A stretch of DNA of 64,000 bases from Promethearchaeota archaeon (GCA_019058295.1 JAHPZI010000007.1:32001-96000); one strand, 5' to 3'. Numbered from the stretch's first letter, positions 28,262 to 42,018 are shown. The notes: generated from the letters alone by a model not told the origin. A program made the numbers and translations.

Positions 28262-29680
28262 ATGTTTGTTGAGTATTTTTATTATCTAAAGGAAAGATTA
28301 CCCGTTAGTATTACGGAATATATGACTTTATTACAAGCCTTAGAAAAAGGTTTAATCCGTAACATGGTAGAATTCTATTACGTTTCGAGATCTATATTAT
28401 GTAAAAACGAGCACCATTTCGATATCTATGACATTGCCTTTGCAAATTTTTTCAAGGAAGCGTTAATTAAATTTCCGGAAGAATTAAAAAAAGAGATCTG
28501 GGATTGGCTTAATAAAGAAATAACCTTTCAGGAGTTAATAGAAGGTTTACAAATTTTATTAAGTGAATATGGACAATTTATGAATGTCGAGGATTTTCAG
28601 CAGTTAATTGAAGAGTTATTAAAAAAGGCAGAATCGGGGGAGTTAAAATTAATTAACGCTCCTAGTGAGATAAAGGATGAGATCTGGGAATGGCTACAAA
28701 GAAATTTTGATTTATCAAAAATAAATTCTGTAACTCAAGAATTTTTAAGCAAATTCTCTAATATCGAAGAATTGCAAAAATATTTTGAAGAATTGATGGC
28801 AAAACAAGATGCGGAACATAATTTCGGAAATCAATGGATCGGAACCCAAGGTACCTCACAATTTGGAAACGCAGGGCAAAATCCAATGGGAATGCTGGTT
28901 GGCGGTGGTGCGGGAATGCGTACGGCTGTTCAAATCGCACAAAAAAGAATTTTTCAAGATTATAGAAAAGATGTAGTCTTGGACACTAGACAAATTAAAG
29001 TAGCGTTAAAACGGCTTCGAAAATTGGAAGAAATTGGTAAACAAGATGAATTAAATATTGACAAAACAATTGATAAAACTGCTAAAAATGGTGGCGATAT
29101 TGAAATAATATTTGAAAAAAGAAGAAAAAATAATGTAAAACTCCTTCTTTTAATGGATGTTGGAGGTTCCATGACTCCTTACGCTCACCTGGTTAATCTC
29201 TTGTTTTCTGCCGCAAACAATATGTCTCATTGGAAGGATTTTAAATATTATTACTTCCATAATTGCATCTATGAGAGTTTGTATTTTAACGCGCAACGCA
29301 ATCCTGATGAAGCAATTTTATTTGACGACTTCTTAAGAAAATACGATAGTAGCTATCGAGTAGTCGCCGTAGGTGATGCTGCAATGGCATCATGGGAGCT
29401 TACCGAACGCTATGGTTCGATATATTATTATCACAGAAATGAGATGCCTGGAATTTATTATATCAGAGAGTTAGCCAATCATTTCAAAAATCATATTGTA
29501 TGGCTGAATCCCGAAATCATCAAATTTAATTGGCAACCTTGGACGCGTAAAATCATTTCTAGTATTATTCCTATGTTTGATTTAACTGTAGAAGGCATTG
29601 AGGAAGCGATGAATTATCTAAGAGAAAGCGGAAGACACATATACACAACCGTCCATCTCCTTAAAGGTTTTGCTTTTTAA
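28262..29680 (+). CDS. VWA-domain protein (CoxE-like), paralog 2
   Basis: Near-identical N-terminus to 26414; LLMDVGGSM; extra internal segment. Confidence 0.88.
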   Translation: MFVEYFYYLKERLPVSITEYMTLLQALEKGLIRNMVEFYYVSRSILCKNEHHFDIYDIAFANFFKEALIKFPEELKKEIWDWLNKEITFQELIEGLQILLSEYGQFMNVEDFQQLIEELLKKAESGELKLINAPSEIKDEIWEWLQRNFDLSKINSVTQEFLSKFSNIEELQKYFEELMAKQDAEHNFGNQWIGTQGTSQFGNAGQNPMGMLVGGGAGMRTAVQIAQKRIFQDYRKDVVLDTRQIKVALKRLRKLEEIGKQDELNIDKTIDKTAKNGGDIEIIFEKRRKNNVKLLLLMDVGGSMTPYAHLVNLLFSAANNMSHWKDFKYYYFHNCIYESLYFNAQRNPDEAILFDDFLRKYDSSYRVVAVGDAAMASWELTERYGSIYYYHRNEMPGIYYIRELANHFKNHIVWLNPEIIKFNWQPWTRKIISSIIPMFDLTVEGIEEAMNYLRESGRHIYTTVHLLKGFAF

Positions 29681-29687
29681 GCAACAT

Positions 29688-30065
29688 TTATGTATTTAAG
29701 AAAAATCCTAAGCCAAATGCTAAAAGTAGATTTGCTATAAATGCCCGTTTCTTCTTTTTTTCTCCGAATTCTTTGAAATATTTTTTTCCCAACTTAACTT
29801 GCGCATCATTCAAATCTTCATAGATATATCCTTCCCTAATTAGAAAATAATAAATCTCTTCGCTTTTCTCTATTACAGCATATTCTGTAAAATTTTCTAT
29901 AAGAGTCGATCTCATTCGAATTATGTACTTCAGCTCGTCTTTTATCGCTGAAGGACGAAATATCATTTCTCCTTGATATAATTCCATCCTTTCCAGCAAT
30001 GCGATAATATCTTCCATAAAGACATAGTACCGATTCAAATCAACTTTATCTTTTGCAACGGGCAT
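29688..30065 (-). CDS. Hypothetical protein with C-terminal TM anchor
   Basis: 125-aa ORF ending KKKKRAFIANLLLAFGLGFFLNT. Confidence 0.6.
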   Translation of the reverse strand: MPVAKDKVDLNRYYVFMEDIIALLERMELYQGEMIFRPSAIKDELKYIIRMRSTLIENFTEYAVIEKSEEIYYFLIREGYIYEDLNDAQVKLGKKYFKEFGEKKKKRAFIANLLLAFGLGFFLNT

Positions 30066-30146
30066 CTTAATTTTAATATAATATTAAGAAAATATAAACT
30101 TAAGGTGTAAAGTTTATATATTGGTTTAAACTTTTTTATATTAATT

Positions 30147-31055
30147 ATGAATGGTCTAAAGAAGCATTACACGAGAAAATTACAAAATATTAGTAGGTCA
30201 TATTTAGTAAGTTTGCCAAGCGAATTTTTAAAGAAACATGGATTAAAAGATAAAAAAAATGCATCAGTAATTATAAAAATCAATGAAGATTGGTCCTTGA
30301 CTATAATTCCTGAGAAATTAGCAGAACAAATTTCAGATGAGATAATAATTGAAGTATATAGAGAAGTCGCTCGTGAGGTTGTTGAGAAAGTACTGTCGGG
30401 TACAGAAAAAATTACTATTCTTTCTGATAAGAAAATTGATGAAGATATAAGAAAAGAAATACGATTTTTTGTTGATGGATTGCCTCAAGCTGAAATACTT
30501 GAAGATGAGGCTCAGAGAATTGTTGTATACAATATTGGTTTTAAGAATATTCCAAATAGAAAGATTTTACATCGATTATTATCAATCGTCTCTGATATAT
30601 TTGAAAATATTAAAAAAGAAAAAACATTAGAGTTAGAGCTGAATTTTAAAGATCTAAAAAAATTCTATATAATTTTAAATGGAAATATTCGGACATATCA
30701 TAATTCCGGATTTCTTGAGTATGGCGATGAAGAATTAACGCAAAAAAAAGCTTCAGACTATCGTATTTTCTCATACCAACTTAAAATAATAGGATATATT
30801 TTAAGGGATATCGAAATTGACGATTCTATTTTAGAGTTGTTCACTAAAATTGAAACTTATTTCAATGCGATTTTTGATGCCTTTTTGAAAAAGAACGAAC
30901 GATTAGCACACGAATTATGGTTTCAAAATCAACCTCTTGAACGAGAAGGTAGAAAACTTATGGATGGTGTGTCAAGTGAGTTTAAATATAAGATAAACCT
31001 TCTATTAATGATTGTTAAGATTTGTAGAAGTATGACGGCTCTATTGTATTCATGA
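30147..31055 (+). CDS. Archaeal phosphate-uptake-regulator-like protein (AbrB N-terminus plus PhoU-like helices)
   Basis: TRKLQNISRSYLVSLP...WSLTIIP AbrB-like start; helical remainder. Confidence 0.75.
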   Translation: MNGLKKHYTRKLQNISRSYLVSLPSEFLKKHGLKDKKNASVIIKINEDWSLTIIPEKLAEQISDEIIIEVYREVAREVVEKVLSGTEKITILSDKKIDEDIRKEIRFFVDGLPQAEILEDEAQRIVVYNIGFKNIPNRKILHRLLSIVSDIFENIKKEKTLELELNFKDLKKFYIILNGNIRTYHNSGFLEYGDEELTQKKASDYRIFSYQLKIIGYILRDIEIDDSILELFTKIETYFNAIFDAFLKKNERLAHELWFQNQPLEREGRKLMDGVSSEFKYKINLLLMIVKICRSMTALLYS

Positions 31056-31111
31056 AAATATATTTTATTGACATTTTATAAAATATAGGCTTTTCAATTA
31101 AATTATTACAG

Positions 31112-31654
31112 CTATATTTCCTCGTGAGTTAATAATTTCCTAATTATTGTTTTGAAGGCTTCTCCTACATTTTCTCCAGTTTTCGCTGATGTTTTATAAA
31201 ATCCGAGAAATCCACGCTTATCAACTATTTTTTGAACTTCTGCATCTTTTGAGTTTTTATCAGCTACTAAATCGAGTTTATTTCCTAATATTACAATAGG
31301 GATATCACCACAAAACTTTTTTATATCACCGTGCCAAGCAGGTATTCGTTTTAAACTTTCCTTACCGTGATCAGAATCTTCTAAAGAAAAAACTATAATT
31401 CCACAGCTCGTACCCTTGTAAAAAACAGGTCGAAGAAAAAAATGGTCATCTTGTCCAGCTATATCCCATAAGGATAAATGACACTTTAGATTATCGACCT
31501 CGTCGGAATAAGATGAAAATTGAGCACCGATGGTTTTAGTATATTGCGTTTGAAACGAGGCTTGTGTGTATCTCCGAATTAAAGATGATTTTCCTACTTG
31601 CCCATCTCCAATAACTGTTACCTTAAAAACAAAGTCAGCCTCACTGTCACTCAT
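31112..31654 (-). CDS. Rab-like small GTPase
   Basis: GDGQVGKS, TIG, WDIAGQ, GNKLD, TSAKTG; no C-terminal prenylation Cys. Confidence 0.95.
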   Translation of the reverse strand: MSDSEADFVFKVTVIGDGQVGKSSLIRRYTQASFQTQYTKTIGAQFSSYSDEVDNLKCHLSLWDIAGQDDHFFLRPVFYKGTSCGIIVFSLEDSDHGKESLKRIPAWHGDIKKFCGDIPIVILGNKLDLVADKNSKDAEVQKIVDKRGFLGFYKTSAKTGENVGEAFKTIIRKLLTHEEI

Positions 31655-31818
31655 AATAAAATCTTGTTTTTATTATTCTATGACATATAATATTCATTAA
31701 ATTTTAACATCTATTATTAAGAAATAACTTCATTATAAAGTAGAGATAAAAATATTAAAATGAAGTTAATAATATTTGCATTTAAACAGTGTGAATAATA
31801 ATAATTACGTGCTGATTT

Positions 31819-32601
31819 TTGACAGAACTGGATAGAAATTTAGAATGTATATTTGTAATGGTAGGGGCAATTTTTGTTGCATCTATTGTCATTATTGCAG
31901 CAATTTTATCGTATTTTGAGATGGGATATAATCCGATTGAATATACTATTAGCGAACTAGCACTTTATAGATATAGAACATTATTTAGTATTGGTTTAGT
32001 TTCAGCAGGGTGTTTACTTATTCCTTTTTTTATAAAACTAGAAAGAGAATTAGTTAATATAAAAGAAAATTTAAGAAAAAGCGCCACAGCAGTCGCTATT
32101 TTTGCTTCAATTTGTACTTCCATGGTTGGCGTAATTCCTGATATAGAATATCGTAAAGTATTTGATCTTTTTCACATATTTGTTGCAGTGATTGCATTTG
32201 GCGGTTCTGCTACTTATATCTTCCTCTACAGTATCTTAATGTATAAAGGACATAGTTCTCCCATGTATAAAGGACCTCAATTCAAACGACACGTATCATA
32301 TTATGGTATTTTCATCTTTGGGAATTTTATTATACTACTCCTTATTTTTATACCCCCAATAGAATGGATGTTATTTATTAATATTTTAACTTGGAACTTT
32401 ATAACTGCCTATTACATAATTAAATATAAATTTTCTGGCATTCCAGGTATTTATTATAAAGAAGAACAATATCCAGAAATGCTGGAAAAATTTGAAGAAT
32501 CCTTGATGATATTAAAACAGTTAAATTTAGAGGATGATCCTATGGCAGAGGTTCTTAAAGAAAATATAAAATTTATAAAAAGTGCTCAAGATAAAAACTA
32601 A
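31819..32601 (+). CDS. Membrane protein, DUF998/Frag1-like
   Basis: GYNPIEYTISEL, about 6 TM helices, HIFVAVIAF, PPIEW. Confidence 0.7.
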   Translation: MTELDRNLECIFVMVGAIFVASIVIIAAILSYFEMGYNPIEYTISELALYRYRTLFSIGLVSAGCLLIPFFIKLERELVNIKENLRKSATAVAIFASICTSMVGVIPDIEYRKVFDLFHIFVAVIAFGGSATYIFLYSILMYKGHSSPMYKGPQFKRHVSYYGIFIFGNFIILLLIFIPPIEWMLFINILTWNFITAYYIIKYKFSGIPGIYYKEEQYPEMLEKFEESLMILKQLNLEDDPMAEVLKENIKFIKSAQDKN

Positions 32602-32650
32602 TTTATGAAAGGGAATATTCTTTAATTTTATATAATAAGGTGGAAAAAAA

Positions 32651-33088
32651 ATGCTAAATTTGGTAGGAACAGGTGGAACCTTCGATCGTCTTCATGATGG
32701 GCACAGGCTTTTAATTGAAACAGCTCTAAAAATTTCCAATAAAGTAGTTATAGGATTGACAACTCAGAAGATGCTCAAACGAAAGAAATTTGCCGATATT
32801 ATTGAAGATTTTGAAACAAGAAAAAAGCATCTTGAAAATTTCATCAGTAGCATTGGCGGGTCAGACCGAGTTGAAATTATTGAACTCACTAATCCATACG
32901 GTCCTCCAATCAAAGAACCAGAATACGAGGGTATAGTTGCAAGTCAAGAAACCTTCTTGAATTCAGTTCGATTAAATGAATTAAGAGTTGCCAATGGATT
33001 TGATCCCTTAGTTATTATTCTGATCCCAATGGTAATGGGTTCAAACGACCAACGACTTAGCTCGACGGCTATAAGAGCTAACCTTTAA
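32651..33088 (+). CDS. coaD: Phosphopantetheine adenylyltransferase (archaeal/eukaryotic type)
   Basis: GGTFDRLHDGH, PYGP, SQET, LSSTAIR. Confidence 0.9.
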   Translation: MLNLVGTGGTFDRLHDGHRLLIETALKISNKVVIGLTTQKMLKRKKFADIIEDFETRKKHLENFISSIGGSDRVEIIELTNPYGPPIKEPEYEGIVASQETFLNSVRLNELRVANGFDPLVIILIPMVMGSNDQRLSSTAIRANL

Positions 33089-33250
33089 AAATCCTCTACT
33101 TTTTAATACTATTGAAGGTTGTTGTCAATATTTTTTTATCTGAATTTAAATCTTAAACTTTTTAGTAAAGAATGTTCAAATTTTAAACATCTTTAAATAA
33201 ACACCTAACATATTATACTATATTAATTTAAATTAAATTCAATAGATATT

Positions 33251-36200
33251 TTGAGAAATAAAAATTTTTATCTAATAGCTACAACAGTTTTTTTTCTTGC
33301 ATTATTCGTGCTCTCCATAAATCACAAAAAAGAAACCGAAGAGAGCGACCCAAGTTTAAATGAGAATATTGAAATAGAAACGCCAAATGAGATTACTGAT
33401 CCAGATGATATTACTATAGAAACACCTAGACCAAAAACCTCGGGGGCTTATAATTTAGATTTCATACACATTGATGGCAATTGGTCAGCAGCAGAAGCTG
33501 AGCTATGGTGTTATAAACAAAATGGAGTATATATTATCGAAAATGTTACAATTGATGCAACAAACTCGCCCATTAATAGCGGGATTTTGATTAATAATTC
33601 CAATGATGTAAGTTTTATTGTTAGAAATTGCACAATTTATAATGTAGCAGGACCAGAGTCTCCTCGCGCAGGAGGTATAAAGCTTGTAAATTGCTCAAAG
33701 GGAACCCTCTTCAATAACACTTGTAGAGATGGCGTTGTCAGTGGAAGATCAAGCGGAATTTTAGTGTGGGATTACTGTCATAATATTACTGTTGAAGATA
33801 ACTATATAGATTATCATCATTATCATGGAATTCAATTATGCGGTGAAACCGAAGGAATAGCCCCTTATAACGTCACAGTAAAAAATAATAAAGTCTATGA
33901 TTCTCAATATTATGGCGTCTACTTAGTAAGGGCTGATAATAATACCATCAGAGACAACTTTGTTAGTGATAGTGATAGAAGAAATATACGTTTAGTATCA
34001 AATTGCGATTATAACAGAATTATTAATAACACTGTGACTGATACTGGAGCCCCCCCGGGTTATTCAACCCACCATGGAATAGTATTATCGAGTGAATGTG
34101 ATAATAACATCATAAGAGAGAATAAAGTTACCCAAATTTACGATCATGGTATCTACTTAATTAATAATTGCCATAATAATACCATCAAGGACAATACAGT
34201 AAAAGATAATGGAGATGACGCAATACGTTTAGAAGATAATTGTGACGATAATAAGATTATTAATAATACCGCATCTGACACAGCAGCAGCCCATGGTCAA
34301 GATAATGGGATATGGATAGAAAATGGATGCGAGAGAAACATGATCATCAATAACACTTGCAACGATAATGGTCAGGAGGGAATATACATTTATGATGATT
34401 GTGATGACAATATAATCTCTTACAATATCGTAAAAGATAATACCTATCGTGGATTTTATTTATACTCTGGATGCGACAACAATACTATTTTCAACAATAC
34501 AGTAATTAACAATGGATATAATGGAATACTATTAATTACTAATTGCCATGATAACAATGTCTCTAAAAATTATGCTTGTGGTAATGGGCATGATGGAATA
34601 TTACTACAAGTAAATTGTGATTACAATACAATATTTAATAACACCTGTAATAATAACATTCGAAATGGAATCTATATATATGACGGTTCTGATTACAACA
34701 ATATAACTTATAATACAGCAAATGGTAATGGAGATTCGGATCAGGATAGTGGGATATATCTGTATAATAGTGATTATAATGTAATCCATAATAACACTGC
34801 CAACGGAAATTATTATTCAGGGATATATTTATACTCTGATTGTAATGATAACAATATTACTAATAATGTTTGCAGTGAAAATGATCAATATGGGATTAAG
34901 CTATACACGGATTGCCATAATAACACCCTTGACAATAACACCGCAAACGACAACTTTCAATACGGGATACAGTTACATACAAATTGCACTGATAATGACA
35001 TTATTAATAACTTAGCATTAAACACAATAGAGGGGTATGATCAAAATGTTGGAATACGCATTGCATGGTATTGTGATTACAATACCTACGCAAATAACAC
35101 TGCCAATGGTAATACCGACTCTGGAATAAGTATAGCTTATTATTGTACTGACAGCATCATAGTAAACAACACTTGTAAGAATAACGGTAATGGGATTGAA
35201 TTTTATAGTAATTGCGAAAACCATATAATTGAAAATAATACTGTCAACGAAAATTACCAATATGGGATATTATTAGAGATTAACTGCAATAATAACAATA
35301 TCACAGGAAATATTGGGATTGGTAATGATATCTCAGGAATAAGGTTATATACTAATTGTGATTTTAATCTGATTTTAAATAACACTTTTAGTTATTCTGT
35401 ATCAGAGCATGGAATTGATTTAGAGACTGGTTGTGTTTTTAACACAATAATTAATAACACACTTATGCATAACAATTTGAGAGGTATCCGATTATATGAT
35501 GATTGCGACAACAACACGATTTCGGGAAACACCGCATACTATAATGGTAAGGGAATAGAATTGGATAATTATTGTGATAATAACACGATTTTGGGGAATT
35601 CCTTAAAATATAATTCTCATGGAATACATGTGGCAAATTATTGTGAGGATAACTTCATTATCGGAAATAATTGTAGTAAGAATACAGGACGGGGTATTGC
35701 AATAGGACAAAGAGAAAGCCATTATACTATAATAGATAATAATTATATATGTAATAATGGATATCGTGGAATTGAAATCTATTTTTGGTGTGGTAGCACC
35801 ATTATTACTAACAATATTATAAATAATAATATAGATAATGGACTCAGAATAGTTTCTGCTAGTAGTGGCACTATAGTTCATAATAACACTATTAATGGTA
35901 ATACTAATATAGGAATATATATTTCTGATAACACTGATAACTGTAGGATATCACATAATATTGTCAATGATAATAACAACTATGCGGTATATATAGCAGG
36001 GACTAGTAGTGAAAACACTATTCTTATAGGAAACACGTTCAATAACAATAATCTCTTCTATAATCTGGGCACAAACACTCTAGATGCGATGAACTGCTTT
36101 GACGGCGTGTGTACACCTCTGATAATTGATGCGGATAGCAGCACCGCTGACTCATTTACATGGGAAGAGGTTCTAACATATGTTCCTTGGTTTTCTGGTG

Positions 36201-39200
36201 CGGGTACCTTGAACGATCCTTATATGATCGAGGGTATAACTATTAACGCATCTGGAAACGCAGTAGGTCTTTATATAATTGATTCTAAAGATGTCTATTT
36301 TAAGATTAAAGATTGTACCGTGTACGAGGCGGGTAGTGGCAGTGGTTATGATGCGGGAATTAAACTAGAAAATACATGTAATGGTACAATTATTAATAAT
36401 ATAGTCTCGAATAATGAAAATAATGGAATTTGTTTGATAAGTGGATGCCGTAATAATACGATCACGGAGAATACTGGAATTGGTAATAAGGATTCCGGAT
36501 TAAGATTGCAAACTGATTGTGATTATAATATTATTTCAAATAATAATTTTAGCTATTCTGATCCGACTTATGGTAATGATGGAATTCAAATAGAGAGTGA
36601 TTGCGATTACAATACAATAATTAATAATATACTTAATAATAACAAAAGGAATGGTCTCCGATTTTGGGATACTTGTAATGATAATAAAATATTGAAAAAC
36701 ACCATAAATGGTAATATAGAAAGCGGTATAGTTATAACATTAGATTCTGATAATAATAATTTCTCGGAAAATACTATATCTAATAACTTAATTTATGGTG
36801 CAGGTATACACGCGCCTACATGCGATAACAATTTATTTTACAACAATACTTTCACGGGAAATACCAACTCTCATATATATGATGAATCATCTAATACGAA
36901 ATATAATAATACCCAAATTGGTAATTATTGGGACGATTATGGGGGTATAGATGCGGATGATAACGGTATAGGTGATACTGATTATAATGTTTATGGGTCT
37001 CTATGGGATGAGCTCCCTATTTGGTGGGATGCACCCGTTGTATCAATTACTACTCCATCATATATGGACGTCTTTGGGAACGCCACGATTAATTTTACTT
37101 TAAGTATTACTAGGACAATTCCAAGTTTGTGTAATATGTGGTATATGTTAGTAAACAATACAAATCCAACTGATAAGACGGGTAATCAAACATTTACCAA
37201 ATATCCTTCGCACTATATTTTATATAATTTATGGAACACATTTGAAAATGGAACCATTAAGATTTGGTTTTTTTTAAATGATTCAAGAGGTTATATTGGT
37301 TCTGCAAGTGTCATTATTCAAAAAAATATCTATGCTCCTACAATTTCAATCGTAAAAATAGGTTTTTATGGCGTAGGAGGGGTATCAACAATTAATTTTA
37401 CCGTCGCTTTAGATGGTCCAGATGTGGATACACTTTGGTATAGAATTTATAACGGGACTTGGTCAAAAAATTACACTTTTAATGCAATATCAGGGCAAAT
37501 GAATAAAGAAATAAATCCCAATTTATGGAAATCACTTGGTAATGGTACTTTAACAATTCAATTCTTTTTAAATGATACTTTAGCCCCTGAAACAACCAAA
37601 AAAGAACGCAAATTCATAAAAGATATTGTCCCTCCAAGTTTAATTATTACAAGTCCCTCTAACAATGATGTTGCAGGAATTTCTCCACCAGATATTACAT
37701 TTAATATTAATGAAAGCCAACTCCATCAAATTTGGTATGAATTGGATGATGGCACTGGCTATGGTAATTATACGTATCGTGATGTTATCGCGGATTTATT
37801 TGATAAAATTAAGTATGACTATTGGAAATTATTAAATAATGGAACAGTTATCATTAAATTCTGGGCAAATGATACAGGGGGTAATGTAAATTACACTATT
37901 GTATCACTTTCGCTACGAAAAGACATCTATAAACCCATAATTGATGATATTGATAGATTTTATGAAGGATGGACATACGGAAGCACACCTCCACTTTATA
38001 CTCTTGAGATAACTGAACCTCATTTTTATCAGATGTGGTATACTTTATTCGATGGAACAAACCTTTATACTTCTTCAACTTATACATCATTAAGTGGCTC
38101 AATTGACCAAACTCTTTGGAACAATTTAAACAATGGAGAAATTAATGTCACATTTTATGTTGAAGACCAAGCAGGAAATGTTGGATATAAAGATTATGCT
38201 GTTATAAAAGAAGTGGCAATTCTCCCTGGATCACCACCTCCTGCAGATGACGATGATGACGATGATGACGGAGAAGATGATACAATGGATTGGATAATTC
38301 GTGCATTATTAGCGGGACTAATTAGTGGTACTGTAGGAATTTCTCTCAGAATTGCTTATAGCAAGATTAAGAAAAAGAGAGAAGCTGCGCGACAGGCAGC
38401 AGCACCAACTGTAATCTTAAAAAAGAAATATCAAATTGTCCATCATGACTTTTTAACACCATATGGCAAAGTAGAGAAAAAGGAGTTCAAAGTTGGAATT
38501 GCACAAATTGGGTTATCAAAAACGGGCAATCTTATAACCGAGTTATTCGACATGACCCCTGAAGGACTCATGAGAATTCGTGAAAATATGGTAGAAACCG
38601 TAAGCGCTAATATTAAAAGTATGGTTAAACAAGCTCATGAAAATGGTATTAACATATTACTCTTCCCTGAAATGACATTTGACCTTAACTATAAAAGAAT
38701 GGTAAAAGATGTCAAGCAATGGGCGCAAGATTACAATATGTATATAATTACAGGCGGATATCATGATATCAAAACTAAACAAAATATTTGCGCTGTATTT
38801 GGACCAGAAGGCATTCAATGGGAACAAGAGAAACATACACCAGCTACCATTCACTTTGGAAAGCATGTATTTACAGAAGCAATAGAGATCCATCATCCTC
38901 CGCATAAACTTCACATTTGCGCCACCGAATATGGAAGAATCGCAATAGCGATATGTCGAGATTTTCTTGATATGGATTTACGGGTTGAAATTAAGAATTG
39001 CGAGCCACCTGTGGATCTTTTCTTTAATCCAGCTTATACTCCAGTTACAGTTGATTTTGAGGCAACACATTTTGATGCCCGTCGAGCCGTATATGCATAC
39101 ACTTTCTTTGCTAATGTTGCTGAATATGGCGGAACAATTATAAATACACCAGAAAAGGACAGGACAAAAAGGCAGATCCCTCCAAAAGAAGAAGGTCTTA

Positions 39201-39301
39201 TATTTAAGGATGTAGATCTATTTAGCTTGCGGTCAGAGCGTAATAAATGGGAAAGAAGGCAAAGTAAGGAAAAGAGATATATCCAAAGCACAAGATCATA
39301 A
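33251..39301 (+). CDS. Giant membrane protein: signal anchor, parallel beta-helix (NosD-like) repeats, Ig-like repeats, poly-Asp linker, TM, C-terminal carbon-nitrogen hydrolase domain
   Basis: Many GIxLxxxCDxNxIxNN coils; GNYWDDY..D.D..GIGD cap; TM WIIRALLAGLISGTVGISL; LLFPEM, QEKHTP and AICRDF motifs. Confidence 0.88.
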   Translation: MRNKNFYLIATTVFFLALFVLSINHKKETEESDPSLNENIEIETPNEITDPDDITIETPRPKTSGAYNLDFIHIDGNWSAAEAELWCYKQNGVYIIENVTIDATNSPINSGILINNSNDVSFIVRNCTIYNVAGPESPRAGGIKLVNCSKGTLFNNTCRDGVVSGRSSGILVWDYCHNITVEDNYIDYHHYHGIQLCGETEGIAPYNVTVKNNKVYDSQYYGVYLVRADNNTIRDNFVSDSDRRNIRLVSNCDYNRIINNTVTDTGAPPGYSTHHGIVLSSECDNNIIRENKVTQIYDHGIYLINNCHNNTIKDNTVKDNGDDAIRLEDNCDDNKIINNTASDTAAAHGQDNGIWIENGCERNMIINNTCNDNGQEGIYIYDDCDDNIISYNIVKDNTYRGFYLYSGCDNNTIFNNTVINNGYNGILLITNCHDNNVSKNYACGNGHDGILLQVNCDYNTIFNNTCNNNIRNGIYIYDGSDYNNITYNTANGNGDSDQDSGIYLYNSDYNVIHNNTANGNYYSGIYLYSDCNDNNITNNVCSENDQYGIKLYTDCHNNTLDNNTANDNFQYGIQLHTNCTDNDIINNLALNTIEGYDQNVGIRIAWYCDYNTYANNTANGNTDSGISIAYYCTDSIIVNNTCKNNGNGIEFYSNCENHIIENNTVNENYQYGILLEINCNNNNITGNIGIGNDISGIRLYTNCDFNLILNNTFSYSVSEHGIDLETGCVFNTIINNTLMHNNLRGIRLYDDCDNNTISGNTAYYNGKGIELDNYCDNNTILGNSLKYNSHGIHVANYCEDNFIIGNNCSKNTGRGIAIGQRESHYTIIDNNYICNNGYRGIEIYFWCGSTIITNNIINNNIDNGLRIVSASSGTIVHNNTINGNTNIGIYISDNTDNCRISHNIVNDNNNYAVYIAGTSSENTILIGNTFNNNNLFYNLGTNTLDAMNCFDGVCTPLIIDADSSTADSFTWEEVLTYVPWFSGAGTLNDPYMIEGITINASGNAVGLYIIDSKDVYFKIKDCTVYEAGSGSGYDAGIKLENTCNGTIINNIVSNNENNGICLISGCRNNTITENTGIGNKDSGLRLQTDCDYNIISNNNFSYSDPTYGNDGIQIESDCDYNTIINNILNNNKRNGLRFWDTCNDNKILKNTINGNIESGIVITLDSDNNNFSENTISNNLIYGAGIHAPTCDNNLFYNNTFTGNTNSHIYDESSNTKYNNTQIGNYWDDYGGIDADDNGIGDTDYNVYGSLWDELPIWWDAPVVSITTPSYMDVFGNATINFTLSITRTIPSLCNMWYMLVNNTNPTDKTGNQTFTKYPSHYILYNLWNTFENGTIKIWFFLNDSRGYIGSASVIIQKNIYAPTISIVKIGFYGVGGVSTINFTVALDGPDVDTLWYRIYNGTWSKNYTFNAISGQMNKEINPNLWKSLGNGTLTIQFFLNDTLAPETTKKERKFIKDIVPPSLIITSPSNNDVAGISPPDITFNINESQLHQIWYELDDGTGYGNYTYRDVIADLFDKIKYDYWKLLNNGTVIIKFWANDTGGNVNYTIVSLSLRKDIYKPIIDDIDRFYEGWTYGSTPPLYTLEITEPHFYQMWYTLFDGTNLYTSSTYTSLSGSIDQTLWNNLNNGEINVTFYVEDQAGNVGYKDYAVIKEVAILPGSPPPADDDDDDDDGEDDTMDWIIRALLAGLISGTVGISLRIAYSKIKKKREAARQAAAPTVILKKKYQIVHHDFLTPYGKVEKKEFKVGIAQIGLSKTGNLITELFDMTPEGLMRIRENMVETVSANIKSMVKQAHENGINILLFPEMTFDLNYKRMVKDVKQWAQDYNMYIITGGYHDIKTKQNICAVFGPEGIQWEQEKHTPATIHFGKHVFTEAIEIHHPPHKLHICATEYGRIAIAICRDFLDMDLRVEIKNCEPPVDLFFNPAYTPVTVDFEATHFDARRAVYAYTFFANVAEYGGTIINTPEKDRTKRQIPPKEEGLIFKDVDLFSLRSERNKWERRQSKEKRYIQSTRS

Positions 39302-39483
39302 AGCTTCCTTTTTTATAATAATAAATTTAATAGAAGAATTAAATTCCGAAATTTAATTTATAATTAATCTAACCTTTTGAAAATTAATACTAATTTTAAA
39401 AAATAAATCTAGTTTATATTCTTACGAGAATATTATAAATGAAACTTTTCTCAAATATTATAAGAAAGTAATAGAAATTTATT

Positions 39484-42018
39484 ATGGCTTTAAATTCCCA
39501 GGTAAAACCTATAAAACCATCGGATTTTTCAACCAGCAGGAGTAATAGAACGCAGATCTTAAAGAAAAAGATTTTAGATGCTCCTTATGAGATTTGTATC
39601 GAGCGTGCTCGCTATTTTACACAGGTATTTAAGGAAACCGAGGGCGAACACCCTTCATTAAGAGCGGCTAAGGCAATAGAGCGAACTTTAGATAATATGA
39701 CAATTTACATTTTGCCAGAAGAGCTTTTAATAGGTAATCGATCAAGTAAATTAGTAGCCTCTGTAATTCCAATTGAGAGAGGCGAATTTAACATGATTTT
39801 TCAATTAGATCTAAAAAATGTTATGAAAAGAGAAATCAAACCATTTCAATTATCTCCTGAAGAAAAAAGGGAACTACTAAAGGAAATTATTCCATACTGG
39901 AAAAAAAAAACAATTCGAGATTATAAAAAGCAAGAATGGAAACAAGAGGATTTATTATTAAAACCTAGGTTTGGCCTTTTTTCAATCTTCCGCAGGATGA
40001 AATATTTTGGTTTAAAGTCTCTATGGAAATCAACTAAACCGTTTTTAAAAGGACGAATCTTACATATTTTTAAAGCATTCAGAGAAATCGCATTAAACAA
40101 CCCTAATCTTGTAGATGATGTGTTTGACGATCAGGGGCATCTTATTTTAGGAATAGATAATGTAATGCCAATTGGCTTTAAGGGTATTAAAGAAAAGGCG
40201 TTGAATTTAAGGAAAAAAAATCCTGAACGAGCTGTGTTTTACGATTCTGTAATTATTTGTTGCGATGCTGTCAAAAGATTTGCTGATAAATTTGCCTCAC
40301 TATCATTAAAAATGGCTCATGAAGAAAAAAATGAAGAACGTAAAGAGGAATTACTTCAAATTTCAAAAAATATGACAAAAGTTCCTTGGAATCCTCCTGA
40401 GAATTTTTATGAAGCAATGCAATTTCTATGGTTTACTCAGGATATTGCATTAATTGCATTCGGCTTAGGTGGAATATTTGCTATTGGAAGACCTGACCAA
40501 TATCTTTTCCCCTATTATAAAAAAGATATTGATGAAGGGATTATCACTCGTGAGTTTGCGTTGGAATTAGCTGAAGAACTGCTAATTAAACTTAGTTATA
40601 ATCTTTTTGTCCTACCTTCATATGCAAAAAATACCGCTTCGGAACTTGGAGGAGATAATAATGCCATAACAATTGGAGGAGTTGATAAAAACGGAAATGA
40701 TGCTGCAAATGATTTATCTTTTGTATTTATGGATGCGATTATAAATATCAAGAGCATGACAAATTCTTTTTCTATGAGATTGCATTCAAAATCCACTGAT
40801 GATTATCTACTTAAAGTAGCGGAAGTTTTTTCAAAAACTTCGGGTCCTGCCATATATAACGATGAGATTATTATACCTGCTCTATTGGAAACAGGATGCT
40901 CAATAGAAGATTCAAGAAATTATGGAATTATTGGTTGTGTGGAGCCAACTAGTTGCAGTAATACTCACGGATGTACAGCTGGAAACGATATCTCTCTCGT
41001 TGGAATATTAGAGAAGGTATTAAATAATGGTAAATTGAAGATGATGGGAAAAAGAACTGGCTTAAAAACTGGAAAATTTAAAAGATTTAAGTCATTTGAG
41101 GAAATACTGGAAGCATATAAGAAACAATTAACCAATTCTATTGAATATATCGCTAAATGTGTAAATTGTAAAGATAAAGTCTATATGGAAAGGTTTCATA
41201 ATCCTTATCTCTCCTTAACGATAGATGGTTGTTTAGAGAGCGGATTAGATATCACGGAGGGAGGAGCAAAATATAATTTTGGGTCAATAACAGCAAGAGG
41301 TCTTGCAACTGCTGCGGATTCGTTATTTGCGATAAAGAAAGCTGTTTTTAACGAGAAGTGGCTTACATTAAAAGAGCTAAAGAAATTATTAAATAAGAAT
41401 TTTAGAAAGAATGAAGCTATTAGGCAAAAATTAGTTAACAAAGTTGCCAAATATGGAAATGATAATGACGAGGTTGATGAGATCGCAAGATGGGTTGCAG
41501 ATATATTTTGCGACGAGACAATGAAACAAAAATCTATTAGAAATGGGGGTATTTTCAGACCAGGTTTCTTTTCTTACGGGATGAATGTTGTGGACGGAGC
41601 CTTCCTTGGCGCCACTCCAAATGGCAGACTCGCCGGAGAACCAGTATCTAATAGCATATCTCCAAGTAATAATGCTGAAAAAGAAGGCCCTACTGCTATC
41701 ATTAAGTCTTATGCTAAGTTAAACCAAATAAAAATCTCAAATGGAAGTGCCTTAAATATCAAACTGAGTCCCTCATTTTTAGATTCAGAAGATAGAAAAA
41801 ATAAATTTATAAGCTTTATGAAATCTTTTGTAGATTTAAATGCAATGCATGTTCAATTTAATACTGTTGACACTAAAACTTTATTAGATGCTCAAATCCA
41901 TCCAGAAGATTATTGGGATTTAGTTGTTAGAGTATCTGGATATTGTGCTTATTTCAACGATCTAGGAAAGCCCGTTCAAGACGATATTATCCAACGTGCA
42001 GAATTTAATACTATTTAA
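39484..42018 (+). CDS. Glycyl radical enzyme (PFL-like family)
   Basis: ICIERAR, GRPDQYLFPYY, IIGCVEP, HVQFN, LVVRVSGY. Confidence 0.93.
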   Translation: MALNSQVKPIKPSDFSTSRSNRTQILKKKILDAPYEICIERARYFTQVFKETEGEHPSLRAAKAIERTLDNMTIYILPEELLIGNRSSKLVASVIPIERGEFNMIFQLDLKNVMKREIKPFQLSPEEKRELLKEIIPYWKKKTIRDYKKQEWKQEDLLLKPRFGLFSIFRRMKYFGLKSLWKSTKPFLKGRILHIFKAFREIALNNPNLVDDVFDDQGHLILGIDNVMPIGFKGIKEKALNLRKKNPERAVFYDSVIICCDAVKRFADKFASLSLKMAHEEKNEERKEELLQISKNMTKVPWNPPENFYEAMQFLWFTQDIALIAFGLGGIFAIGRPDQYLFPYYKKDIDEGIITREFALELAEELLIKLSYNLFVLPSYAKNTASELGGDNNAITIGGVDKNGNDAANDLSFVFMDAIINIKSMTNSFSMRLHSKSTDDYLLKVAEVFSKTSGPAIYNDEIIIPALLETGCSIEDSRNYGIIGCVEPTSCSNTHGCTAGNDISLVGILEKVLNNGKLKMMGKRTGLKTGKFKRFKSFEEILEAYKKQLTNSIEYIAKCVNCKDKVYMERFHNPYLSLTIDGCLESGLDITEGGAKYNFGSITARGLATAADSLFAIKKAVFNEKWLTLKELKKLLNKNFRKNEAIRQKLVNKVAKYGNDNDEVDEIARWVADIFCDETMKQKSIRNGGIFRPGFFSYGMNVVDGAFLGATPNGRLAGEPVSNSISPSNNAEKEGPTAIIKSYAKLNQIKISNGSALNIKLSPSFLDSEDRKNKFISFMKSFVDLNAMHVQFNTVDTKTLLDAQIHPEDYWDLVVRVSGYCAYFNDLGKPVQDDIIQRAEFNTI

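Follow-up and report, generated by a model that had tools for sequence, protein, structure and literature searches.

A 64,000-nucleotide (nt) stretch of the Promethearchaeota archaeon assembly GCA_019058295.1 (JAHPZI010000007.1:32001-96000), here called the window, with positions counted from its first letter, contains one open reading frame (ORF) of 2,016 codons plus stop, at 33251-39301 on the plus strand. It starts with TTG and encodes a giant protein in which a predicted extracellular beta-helix and stalk are joined, through a single transmembrane (TM) helix, to an enzyme of the nitrilase superfamily. An earlier sequence-only reading had described a receptor that couples surface binding to intracellular amide hydrolysis; the architecture and topology stood up to analysis, while the enzyme, described there as of the nitrilase family, resembles a defense-type effector module more than a generic nitrilase. 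We propose a one-chain transmembrane sensor-effector whose nitrilase is switched by oligomerization, most likely in an immune or conflict role, and judge the chances that this proposal is right to be about even.

Identification of the C-terminal domain depended on its relatives. Whole-protein scans with Pfam and NCBIfam did not detect a nitrilase domain; the isolated domain scored 20.5 bits against Pfam CN_hydrolase (PF00795), for which the cutoff is 23.2 (E = 3.4e-4, profile positions 16 to 151 aligned), and a phmmer search of the PDB returned marginal matches only (E = 0.03 to 0.04). Relatives of 53 to 68% identity, in comparison, scored above the PF00795 cutoff, at 27 to 41 bits over positions 10 to 253 of 256. 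When 1.84 billion representatives were searched exhaustively with HMMER, 179 relatives came up, of which 49 had E < 1e-30, and an alignment of 41 sequences, some at 20 to 25% identity, was used for a family profile and for structure prediction. In the PDB, the profile matched Nit2 (E = 9.4e-14, 54.6 bits) and DRT1 (E = 2.7e-11, 46.5 bits, profile positions 60 to 292), as well as beta-ureidopropionase, yeast Nit3, PH0642, and pantetheinase. The AlphaFold2 (AF2) model built from the alignment had a mean predicted local distance difference test (pLDDT) score of 90.8 and a predicted template modeling score of 0.88; it was used in place of a single-sequence model, for which the pLDDT was 45. Foldseek gave 213 PDB matches at E ≤ 1e-3, all of them nitrilase-superfamily proteins among the matches listed, with Nit2 (2w1v) the best (E = 5.9e-16, TM-score 0.62 to 0.69). 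The model thus confirmed the alpha-beta-beta-alpha sandwich fold of the superfamily.

The Glu-Lys-Cys triad that had been noted in the sequence (E1807, K1861, and C1902) was upheld by the fold match and by conservation across the 41 sequences, and a second glutamate, E1876, can be added to it, so that by alignment the Glu-Lys-Glu-Cys tetrad is intact. The chain closes with YIQSTRS; all family members end at FIQSTR or one residue beyond. This tail is the sole low-confidence stretch in the C-terminal region of the model and, by analogy with DRT1, is a candidate for a lid that acts in trans on a neighboring active site.

Profiles of antiviral systems place the domain more closely. Against PADLOC models it matched RTasNitrilase (52.8 bits, E = 7.5e-15), CARF_nitrilase (E = 2.4e-10), RT_UG5-nitrilase (E = 2.6e-9), and Drt1a (E = 6e-4), and all 13 of the distinct nearest non-family relatives scanned in the same way matched those nitrilase models, at 133 to 349 bits; against the nitrilase part of CARF_nitrilase, three of these relatives (P0115, P0143, and P0146) gave 166 to 349 bits. 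For the weaker HMMER matches the highest scores are 187 bits with RTasNitrilase and 349 bits with the nitrilase half of CARF_nitrilase; others are fusions of HEAT repeats to a nitrilase. Weaker relatives of ∼1,120 to 1,140 aa were considered as reverse transcriptase (RT)-nitrilases of the DRT1 kind and rejected, as they are such HEAT-repeat-nitrilase fusions. By its PADLOC profiles, the domain appears closer to defense-type effector nitrilases, among them those of defense-associated reverse transcriptases (DRTs), than to housekeeping ones.

What is known of these effectors bears on how the giant protein might work. The nitrilases of UG1, UG5, UG6, and UG29 form one clade, and UG5 defense requires the nitrilase catalytic Cys (PMC13436386); the same residue is required for defense in DRT1 (PMC13275509, PMC13436386). 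In DRT1 the nitrilase is the effector: the monomer is inactive, tetramerization mediated by the nitrilase is needed, and conserved C-terminal residues lying over the active site of the neighbor are essential, although the substrate is unknown (PMC13275509). Of the parts that define such systems, neither an RT nor a CARF domain was found in the giant protein (Pfam, NCBIfam) or in the ten neighboring genes. Judged from these scans, the protein is not a member of a DRT or CARF system and has only the effector module in common with them.

Within its own lineage the module is mobile between architectures. It lies at the C terminus of 39 full-length cluster representatives, behind N-terminal partners that include beta-helix/PKD plus TM, tetratricopeptide repeat (TPR) arrays, protein kinase (Pkinase), Ras/Roc plus Pkinase, and unassigned, probably helical parts of ∼880 and ∼1,280 aa. 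The beta-helix and TM combination occurs in four proteins only, the giant protein and the homologs P0002 to P0004. Whether the cytoplasmic domain occurs with other ectodomains had been put forward as a check; all relatives outside the membrane form lack a TM helix and are fused to cytoplasmic-type domains (TPR, kinase, Ras/Roc, or AAA). The family motifs PE, Q.KH, ICRDFLD, TPVT.DF, and FIQSTR are all present in the giant protein, whose enzyme is 53 to 91% identical to other members. Named sources of family members are Promethearchaeota/Lokiarchaeota and Hodarchaeota metagenome-assembled genomes (MAGs), in which the proteins are recorded as "hypothetical protein," "NosD domain-containing protein," or "nitrilase-related carbon-nitrogen hydrolase." We conclude, from homology, that the nitrilase domain belongs to a family confined to Asgard archaea, in which it is shuffled as a module between proteins that, apart from the membrane form, are soluble.

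Three relatives merit separate description. P0005 (1,090 aa, JGI/ENA metagenomes) has an AAA_16 (STAND-type) ATPase at its N terminus, the module at aa ∼123 to 420, and a C-terminal alpha/beta-hydrolase; in no other relative seen does the module lie away from the C terminus. P0010 (785 aa, metagenomic, six cluster members) combines a Ras/Roc GTPase, a protein kinase, and the nitrilase module in a ROCO/LRRK-like layout; P0011 has the kinase and nitrilase and no GTPase.

The module is patchily distributed. Of 301 genomes sampled from the phylum, 95 carry it; they fall into only four to five families and have at most seven matches each. Two of the five other sampled genomes of the same genus carry it. 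Genomes of the same family contain tandem arrays of two to four genes for soluble solenoid-nitrilases of ∼1,280 aa, in which the enzyme is 55 to 60% identical to that of the window (Table 1). Among the matches listed for the 301 genomes, only that of the genome under study lies in an ORF longer than ∼1,300 aa, and no second copy of the module, soluble or otherwise, was present in that genome (79% complete).

The three other membrane-form proteins are P0002 (1,800 aa, Lokiarchaeota MAG), P0003 (N-terminally partial, Hodarchaeota MAG), and P0004 (1,616 aa); accessions for these homologs include TFG12143.1 and MFX0099139.1. Each has the acidic linker, TM helix, basic cluster, and nitrilase in that order, and the four stalk repeats are found in P0002 and P0004 also. 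In a maximum likelihood tree of enzyme domains the four membrane-form proteins made up one group (ultrafast bootstrap/SH-aLRT, 100/100). With the root placed so that five of the six distant sequences fall opposite it, this clade was nested among soluble forms; the outgroups used for rooting are long-branched. The simplest reading of the tree is that the membrane form had one origin from a cytoplasmic ancestor. Conservation along the chain is very uneven. Identity between the giant protein and P0002 is 91% for the enzyme and 88% for the linker and TM stretch but 37 to 39% for the ectodomain, the break falling at the PPPADDDD linker, and with P0004 the corresponding values are 61% for the enzyme and 26 to 33% for the ectodomain. 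By these comparisons the membrane form behaves as a conserved linker-TM-enzyme chassis with a changing sensor, and the fusion has existed for long enough to diverge. A search with the TM and juxtamembrane region for the same chassis with other cytoplasmic modules found only the query itself and P0002. Several other family members (P0005, P0006, P0020, P0027, P0042, and others) were examined as additional TM-anchored forms and rejected, as their hydropathy peaks are amphipathic or buried segments and not TM helices beside the domain.

The recurrence of this layout also bears on whether the fusion is real. The sequence-only reading had named two ways to fail, a misassembled fusion and a topology that places both parts on the same side, and neither was borne out. 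That the gene is a product of chimeric assembly or of read-through of two genes, or that the topology is reversed or same-sided, seems to us very improbable. In favor of such errors, the source is a MAG, 79% complete and in 30 contigs; against them, the beta-helix-linker-TM-basic-nitrilase order is shared by three independent MAG proteins, including ones from Lokiarchaeota and Hodarchaeota, the enzyme domains of the membrane forms make up a fully supported clade, the composition (∼30% GC) is unchanged across the gene, with no break at the junction, and the gene lies midway in a contig of 143,766 bases. A frame of 2,016 codons is not expected by chance, because stop codons are frequent at ∼30% GC. 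The start position is supported by P0002, which begins at the equivalent point (MRNKNYF...).

The topology follows from several features of the sequence that agree with one another. Hydropathy (Kyte-Doolittle) gave only two TM-like peaks, at aa 3 to 26 and aa 1681 to 1703, in accord with the N-terminal hydrophobic signal and the TM segment at ∼38291-38360 of the sequence-only reading. The first is a signal peptide or a signal anchor. Around the second, the acidic linker PPPADDDDDDDDGEDD leads into the TM helix WIIRALLAGLISGTVGISLRIAY, which is followed by SKIKKKRE, so that the linker and the basic stop-transfer cluster were both present as described. Because the cluster lies behind the TM helix, the positive-inside rule makes the C-terminal side cytoplasmic. 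All 57 N-X-S/T sequons precede the TM helix (composition would predict 38), and they are most enriched in the stalk (17 observed, 6 expected); after the TM helix there are none, where 1.1 would be expected. The Cys residues are distributed likewise, with 46 of 51 before aa 1250 and 47 of 51 in the ectodomain. The positive-inside rule, these two distributions, and the TM-less, cytoplasmic-type relatives all put the enzyme inside, and we consider it well supported by these predictions that the first ∼1,680 residues are outside and the last 313 inside, in a type I or signal-anchored single-pass protein. They also count against the reversed or same-side arrangement considered above. The nitrilase domain starts ∼23 residues below the membrane. 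The TM helix itself is conserved: that of P0004, AIIAGAISGSVGLSIRIAY, is much more like that of the giant protein than an anchor alone would require.

The extracellular part is built largely of a parallel beta-helix. Pfam Beta_helix (E = 1e-101) and NosD (E = 1e-97) each matched nine stretches and NCBIfam para_beta_helix matched 13. Coil length is ∼24 aa, and in 29 coils a Cys occupies a fixed position in the motif C-x(1-3)-N-x-[IVLFYT]. Coils with a position-fixed Cys had been noted before and were recovered. They form not one beta-helix but two: cutting the sequence at the motif N-x-[IVL]-x-x-N delimited two modules, each with its own cap. Repeats seen at the DNA level within the gene correspond to these coils. 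The four Ig-like repeats of the sequence-only reading were found as four repeats of ∼100 aa, with modest support for the label. Big_13 matched them at E = 0.013 in the giant protein and reached 26.6 bits, against a cutoff of 27, in a paralog whose repeats match those of the giant protein at E = 8e-9; atlas searches, which scored 0.83 for the stalk and 0.83 to 0.84 overall, gave leads only. The repeats are probably Ig-like and of Big_13 type by these matches. In a sequence search of the PDB, the beta-helix gave only a weak match to NosD and the stalk nothing credible.

The ectodomain is far from unique in its own genome. A 681-aa probe that spans the second beta-helix module together with the stalk (window 36215-38257) had 69 matches there, in at least 15 large ORFs. 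When the beta-helix and stalk regions were run with phmmer against every ORF of 300 aa or more in the genome, ∼18 paralogs emerged; these share the beta-helix, the stalk repeats, or both with the giant protein, begin with a hydrophobic segment, and end in a TM helix and a basic tail of 0 to 20 residues. Two have longer tails, of 85 and 236 aa, with no Pfam domain in either. Only the giant protein, among all of these, carries an enzyme behind the anchor. It has the signal, parallel beta-helix repeats, and C-terminal TM helix that mark archaeal tail-anchored NosD/PbH1 surface proteins, and by these paralogs its ectodomain is a stock Lokiarchaeial surface scaffold of the tail-anchored type. The 85-aa tail belongs to a paralog of 1,649 aa (G000:C28:45543-50492). 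The 236-aa tail, cytoplasmic and coiled-coil in appearance, lies behind Big_13-like repeats and a TM helix in a protein cut by a contig end (G000:C10:122447-123955, minus strand, equivalent to L053:148-1656), which is a second candidate for outside-in coupling in the genome.

A rival arrangement would involve no signaling: an S-layer-associated protein or adhesin would hold a constitutively active amidase at the cytoplasmic side of the membrane, where it would serve local metabolism or modify the envelope or its lipids. The ∼18 tail-anchored paralogs, with ectodomains of the same kind, are in its favor, as are precedents in the superfamily, which includes membrane-bound Lnt and ecto-enzymes such as vanins; pantetheinase is among the profile matches. 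Lnt (apolipoprotein N-acyltransferase) has a polytopic membrane domain and a nitrilase domain outside the cytoplasm. The giant protein, in comparison, has a single TM helix with the basic cluster on the domain side, and no Lnt model was reported among the NCBIfam matches. Moreover, the relatives of the module are soluble, multidomain, sensor-like proteins and not metabolic enzymes, the TM helix is conserved far past the needs of an anchor, a close relative does without the gene (see below), and a conserved linker-TM-enzyme unit with a changing ectodomain suggests that the two halves act together. We consider a constitutive tethered enzyme quite unlikely.

Comparison with a genome of the same genus (G138, 99% complete) showed that the gene can be absent altogether. 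The flanks of the site are 92 to 96% identical at the nt level, and the giant gene is missing between them; in G138 the genes for the cytidylyltransferase-like protein and the pyruvate formate-lyase (PFL)-like enzyme are 36 nt apart. The variable segment spans window positions ∼29,680 to 39,450 (∼9.8 kb) and corresponds to ∼1.6 kb in G138 (L049, G138:C165, 8199-9803). It contains a 125-aa ORF, a 302-aa MazE/AbrB-like ORF, a Ras GTPase gene, a gene for a DUF998 membrane protein, a diverged cytidylyltransferase gene (72% nt identity), and the giant gene. The nitrilase module had no match anywhere in G138. No direct or inverted repeats that would mark the borders of a mobile element flank the segment, all repeats being internal beta-helix coils. 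From this comparison we conclude that the giant gene is accessory. A second small indel was seen nearby: in G138 a 150-aa ORF that the window lacks lies between the PFL-like and amidohydrolase genes (L049 4747-5199).

Fast divergence of the ectodomain on a conserved chassis, together with presence and absence between close genomes, fits an arms race and hence an immune or conflict role. The same mechanics of sensor and enzyme could also serve a receptor for contact or environment that senses, for example, kin, syntrophic partners, or a surface or polymer substrate, and whose nitrilase would make or destroy a signaling or metabolic amide instead of killing or arresting the cell. Relatives that fuse the module to signaling domains, Ras/Roc plus kinase in P0010 and kinase in P0011, are compatible with such a receptor, and a gene for a Ras-family GTPase lies 1.6 kb upstream of the giant gene in the same variable segment, with no recognized defense genes beside it; NosD/PbH1 beta-helix domains, furthermore, commonly bind carbohydrates. 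On the other side, the nearest relatives of the enzyme outside the family are all nitrilases of conflict systems, the family is patchy, multicopy, and tandemly arrayed, the giant gene is absent from the near-identical genome G138, and the sensor is hypervariable relative to the enzyme. On balance, a nonimmune receptor strikes us as unlikely.

In the immune or conflict role that we favor, a ligand on the surface of a virus or foreign cell, probably a glycan or a protein, would be bound by the beta-helix, whereupon the ectodomains would cluster or reorient. The conserved TM helix would relay the signal and bring the membrane-proximal nitrilase domains together. Enzymes of the nitrilase superfamily are active only as oligomers. 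Oligomerization, with the FIQSTR tail, would then switch on hydrolysis of some cytoplasmic amide or C-N substrate, which could end in growth arrest or abortive infection or could produce a signal.

Several points weigh against this proposal. In the PDB the family profile slightly favors housekeeping Nit2 over DRT1 (54.6 versus 46.5 bits), so that the affinity to defense nitrilases hinges on what the PADLOC profiles show and on what the weaker relatives are. A function for the Asgard family is argued from homology, and ligand-induced clustering and signaling through the membrane are pure inference. The tie to defense likewise draws on the kinship of the effector module, backed by arguments of a population-genetic style, with no defense-island context apparent: none of the ten flanking genes scanned is a recognized defense gene. 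Surface proteins diverge fast for many reasons, and ectodomain divergence is not specific to immunity. Finally, the membrane form is rare, four proteins being known in the collections searched, each in a single-member cluster at 90% identity, and the genome itself is 79% complete.

AT-rich gaps of 162 and 182 nt flank the giant gene, TATA-like runs lie upstream, and an oligo-T run directly follows the stop codon; these features suggest that the gene stands alone and is probably transcribed as a monocistronic unit. The genes scanned around it include those for the Ras GTPase, the DUF998 protein, the cytidylyltransferase, and the PFL-like enzyme. The Ras/Roc-family small GTPase (180 aa, window 31112-31654, minus strand; Pfam Ras, E = 1.6e-40) lies inside the variable segment, and as P0010 fuses Ras/Roc, kinase, and the module in one chain, a functional tie between this neighbor and the nitrilase module is possible. 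Downstream, the gene for the PFL-like glycyl-radical enzyme (window 39484-42018, plus strand) belongs to an unusually large set of paralogs, with seven matches in the same genome and three to eight in genomes of the same genus. Coordinates of the features of the giant gene, and of the tandem arrays, are collected in Table 1.

Table 1. Features of the giant gene (positions in the window) and tandem arrays of related genes (genome:contig:positions)
Feature	Position	Strand	Remarks
Whole giant gene	33251..39301	+	2,016 codons, TTG start; probably monocistronic
N-terminal basic residues and hydrophobic segment, aa 1-26	33251..33328	+	Hydropathy peak 2.1; same start in P0002; shared by about 15 surface paralogs
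Beta-helix module 1, aa ∼65-940	33443..36070	+	∼33 coils of ∼24 aa, Cys/Asn ladder, NosD/PbH1 type
Beta-helix module 2, aa ∼975-1245	36173..36985	+	Cap resembles that of module 1; NosD PDB 7o0y, E = 4.5e-5
Four beta-rich stalk repeats of ∼100 aa, aa 1258-1656	37022..38218	+	Pairwise identity 23 to 35%; most sequon-enriched part
Pro/Asp-rich acidic linker PPPADDDDDDDDGEDDTMD, aa 1662-1680	38234..38290	+	High identity to P0002 starts here
Single TM helix WIIRALLAGLISGTVGISLRIAY, aa 1681-1703	38291..38359	+	Small-residue G/S spacing; conserved in P0002 and P0004
Basic cluster KIKKKR, aa 1705-1710	38363..38380	+	C-terminal side of TM helix
Nitrilase-superfamily (C-N hydrolase) domain, aa 1727-2016, 290 aa	38429..39298	+	Profiles, fold model; placed by profiles in defense-type effector radiation
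Catalytic Glu E1807 (FPEM)	38669..38671	+	Invariant in 41 sequences
Catalytic Lys K1861 (QEKH)	38831..38833	+	Kept in at least 90% of 41 sequences
Second tetrad Glu E1876 (FTEAI)	38876..38878	+	At least 90% of close family; aligned with Nit2 FQES region
Catalytic Cys C1902 (ICRDF)	38954..38956	+	Invariant in 41 sequences
C-terminal tail YIQSTRS	39278..39298	+	Family consensus FIQSTR; low pLDDT in monomer model
Tandem arrays	G192:C1:157746-170593; G121:C33:148257-157077; G049:C49:2237-7115		Four consecutive ∼1,283-aa genes in the first

The sequence-only reading had not recognized the architecture from characterized proteins, and full-text literature searches agreed, with no description found of the Asgard nitrilase family or of a TM-anchored receptor-nitrilase. 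The membrane-anchored, outward-facing variant appears to be the new element. Nitrilase effectors are a recently recognized and mechanistically unsolved arm of prokaryotic immunity, and Asgard archaea have a large family that joins one nitrilase to many kinds of sensor. If our proposal is right, archaea have surface-surveillance receptors with cytoplasmic enzymes of death or signaling, and the simplicity of the design offers a way in: forced dimerization of the TM-anchored nitrilase could switch the enzyme on and reveal its substrate, which would inform the same problem in DRT1 and UG5. A sensor facing outward, a hypervariable solenoid, and a nitrilase "warhead" would amount, by analogy, to a true transmembrane receptor of the innate-immune type in the archaeal lineage closest to eukaryotes, a possibility that we put forward tentatively. 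With equal reserve, on that same innate-immune view the giant protein may be the only outward-looking form of Asgard sensor-nitrilase and a counterpart, made of different parts, of the logic that joins leucine-rich repeat (LRR), TM, and Toll/interleukin-1 receptor (TIR) domains. Were it only a tethered amidase, it would still be a new architecture for the nitrilase superfamily, of modest interest.

Several known systems share one part or another of this design. Among them are the soluble members of the Asgard family, TPR-solenoid-nitrilases of ∼880 and ∼1,280 aa such as MGB5912191.1, which have an enzyme 53 to 61% identical to that of the giant protein, the same tetrad, and the same FIQSTR end. 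They lack a signal peptide, a TM helix, and sequon enrichment, and are therefore cytoplasmic sensors, whereas the N-terminal part of the giant protein is predicted to be extracellular. At its other end the giant protein resembles ordinary archaeal NosD/PbH1 surface proteins in its signal, beta-helix, Ig-like/PKD stalk, acidic or Thr-rich linker, C-terminal TM helix, and basic tail; their tails run to 0 to 20 aa (one to 85 and one to 236), unlike its tail of 313 aa with an enzyme.

DRT1 (UG1) and UG5-large/DRT11, class 3 UG/Abi defense RTs (PDB 9yfd), likewise have a C-terminal nitrilase with an intact catalytic center; the stand-alone RT-associated nitrilases (RTasNitrilase) belong to the same comparison. 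In DRT1 and UG5, as here, there is a conserved extreme C-terminal tail, and the enzyme is subordinate to a large N-terminal part that senses or regulates; some UG1 and UG5 systems also involve a TM protein. They differ in that no RT is found in the giant protein or its ten flanking genes, its putative regulator being an extracellular beta-helix and Ig-like stalk connected through a TM helix in one chain. The hosts are bacterial there and archaeal here, sequence identity is ∼20 to 30%, and the antiviral role shown for DRT1 and UG5 is putative here. The CARF-nitrilase candidates of type III CRISPR-associated signaling (PADLOC CARF_m7--CARF_nitrilase) have a related nitrilase (E = 2.4e-10) and a similar logic in which a sensor controls the enzyme; the giant protein lacks a CARF domain and a CRISPR context, and the CARF-nitrilase family is itself uncharacterized. 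Toll-like receptors (LRR-TM-TIR) and receptor kinases are alike in design only, with a repetitive solenoid outside, a lone TM helix, and an effector inside the cell that acts on oligomerization. No part of them is homologous to the giant protein, whose output would be that of a nitrilase and not of a TIR domain or kinase, and the likeness is one of analogy.

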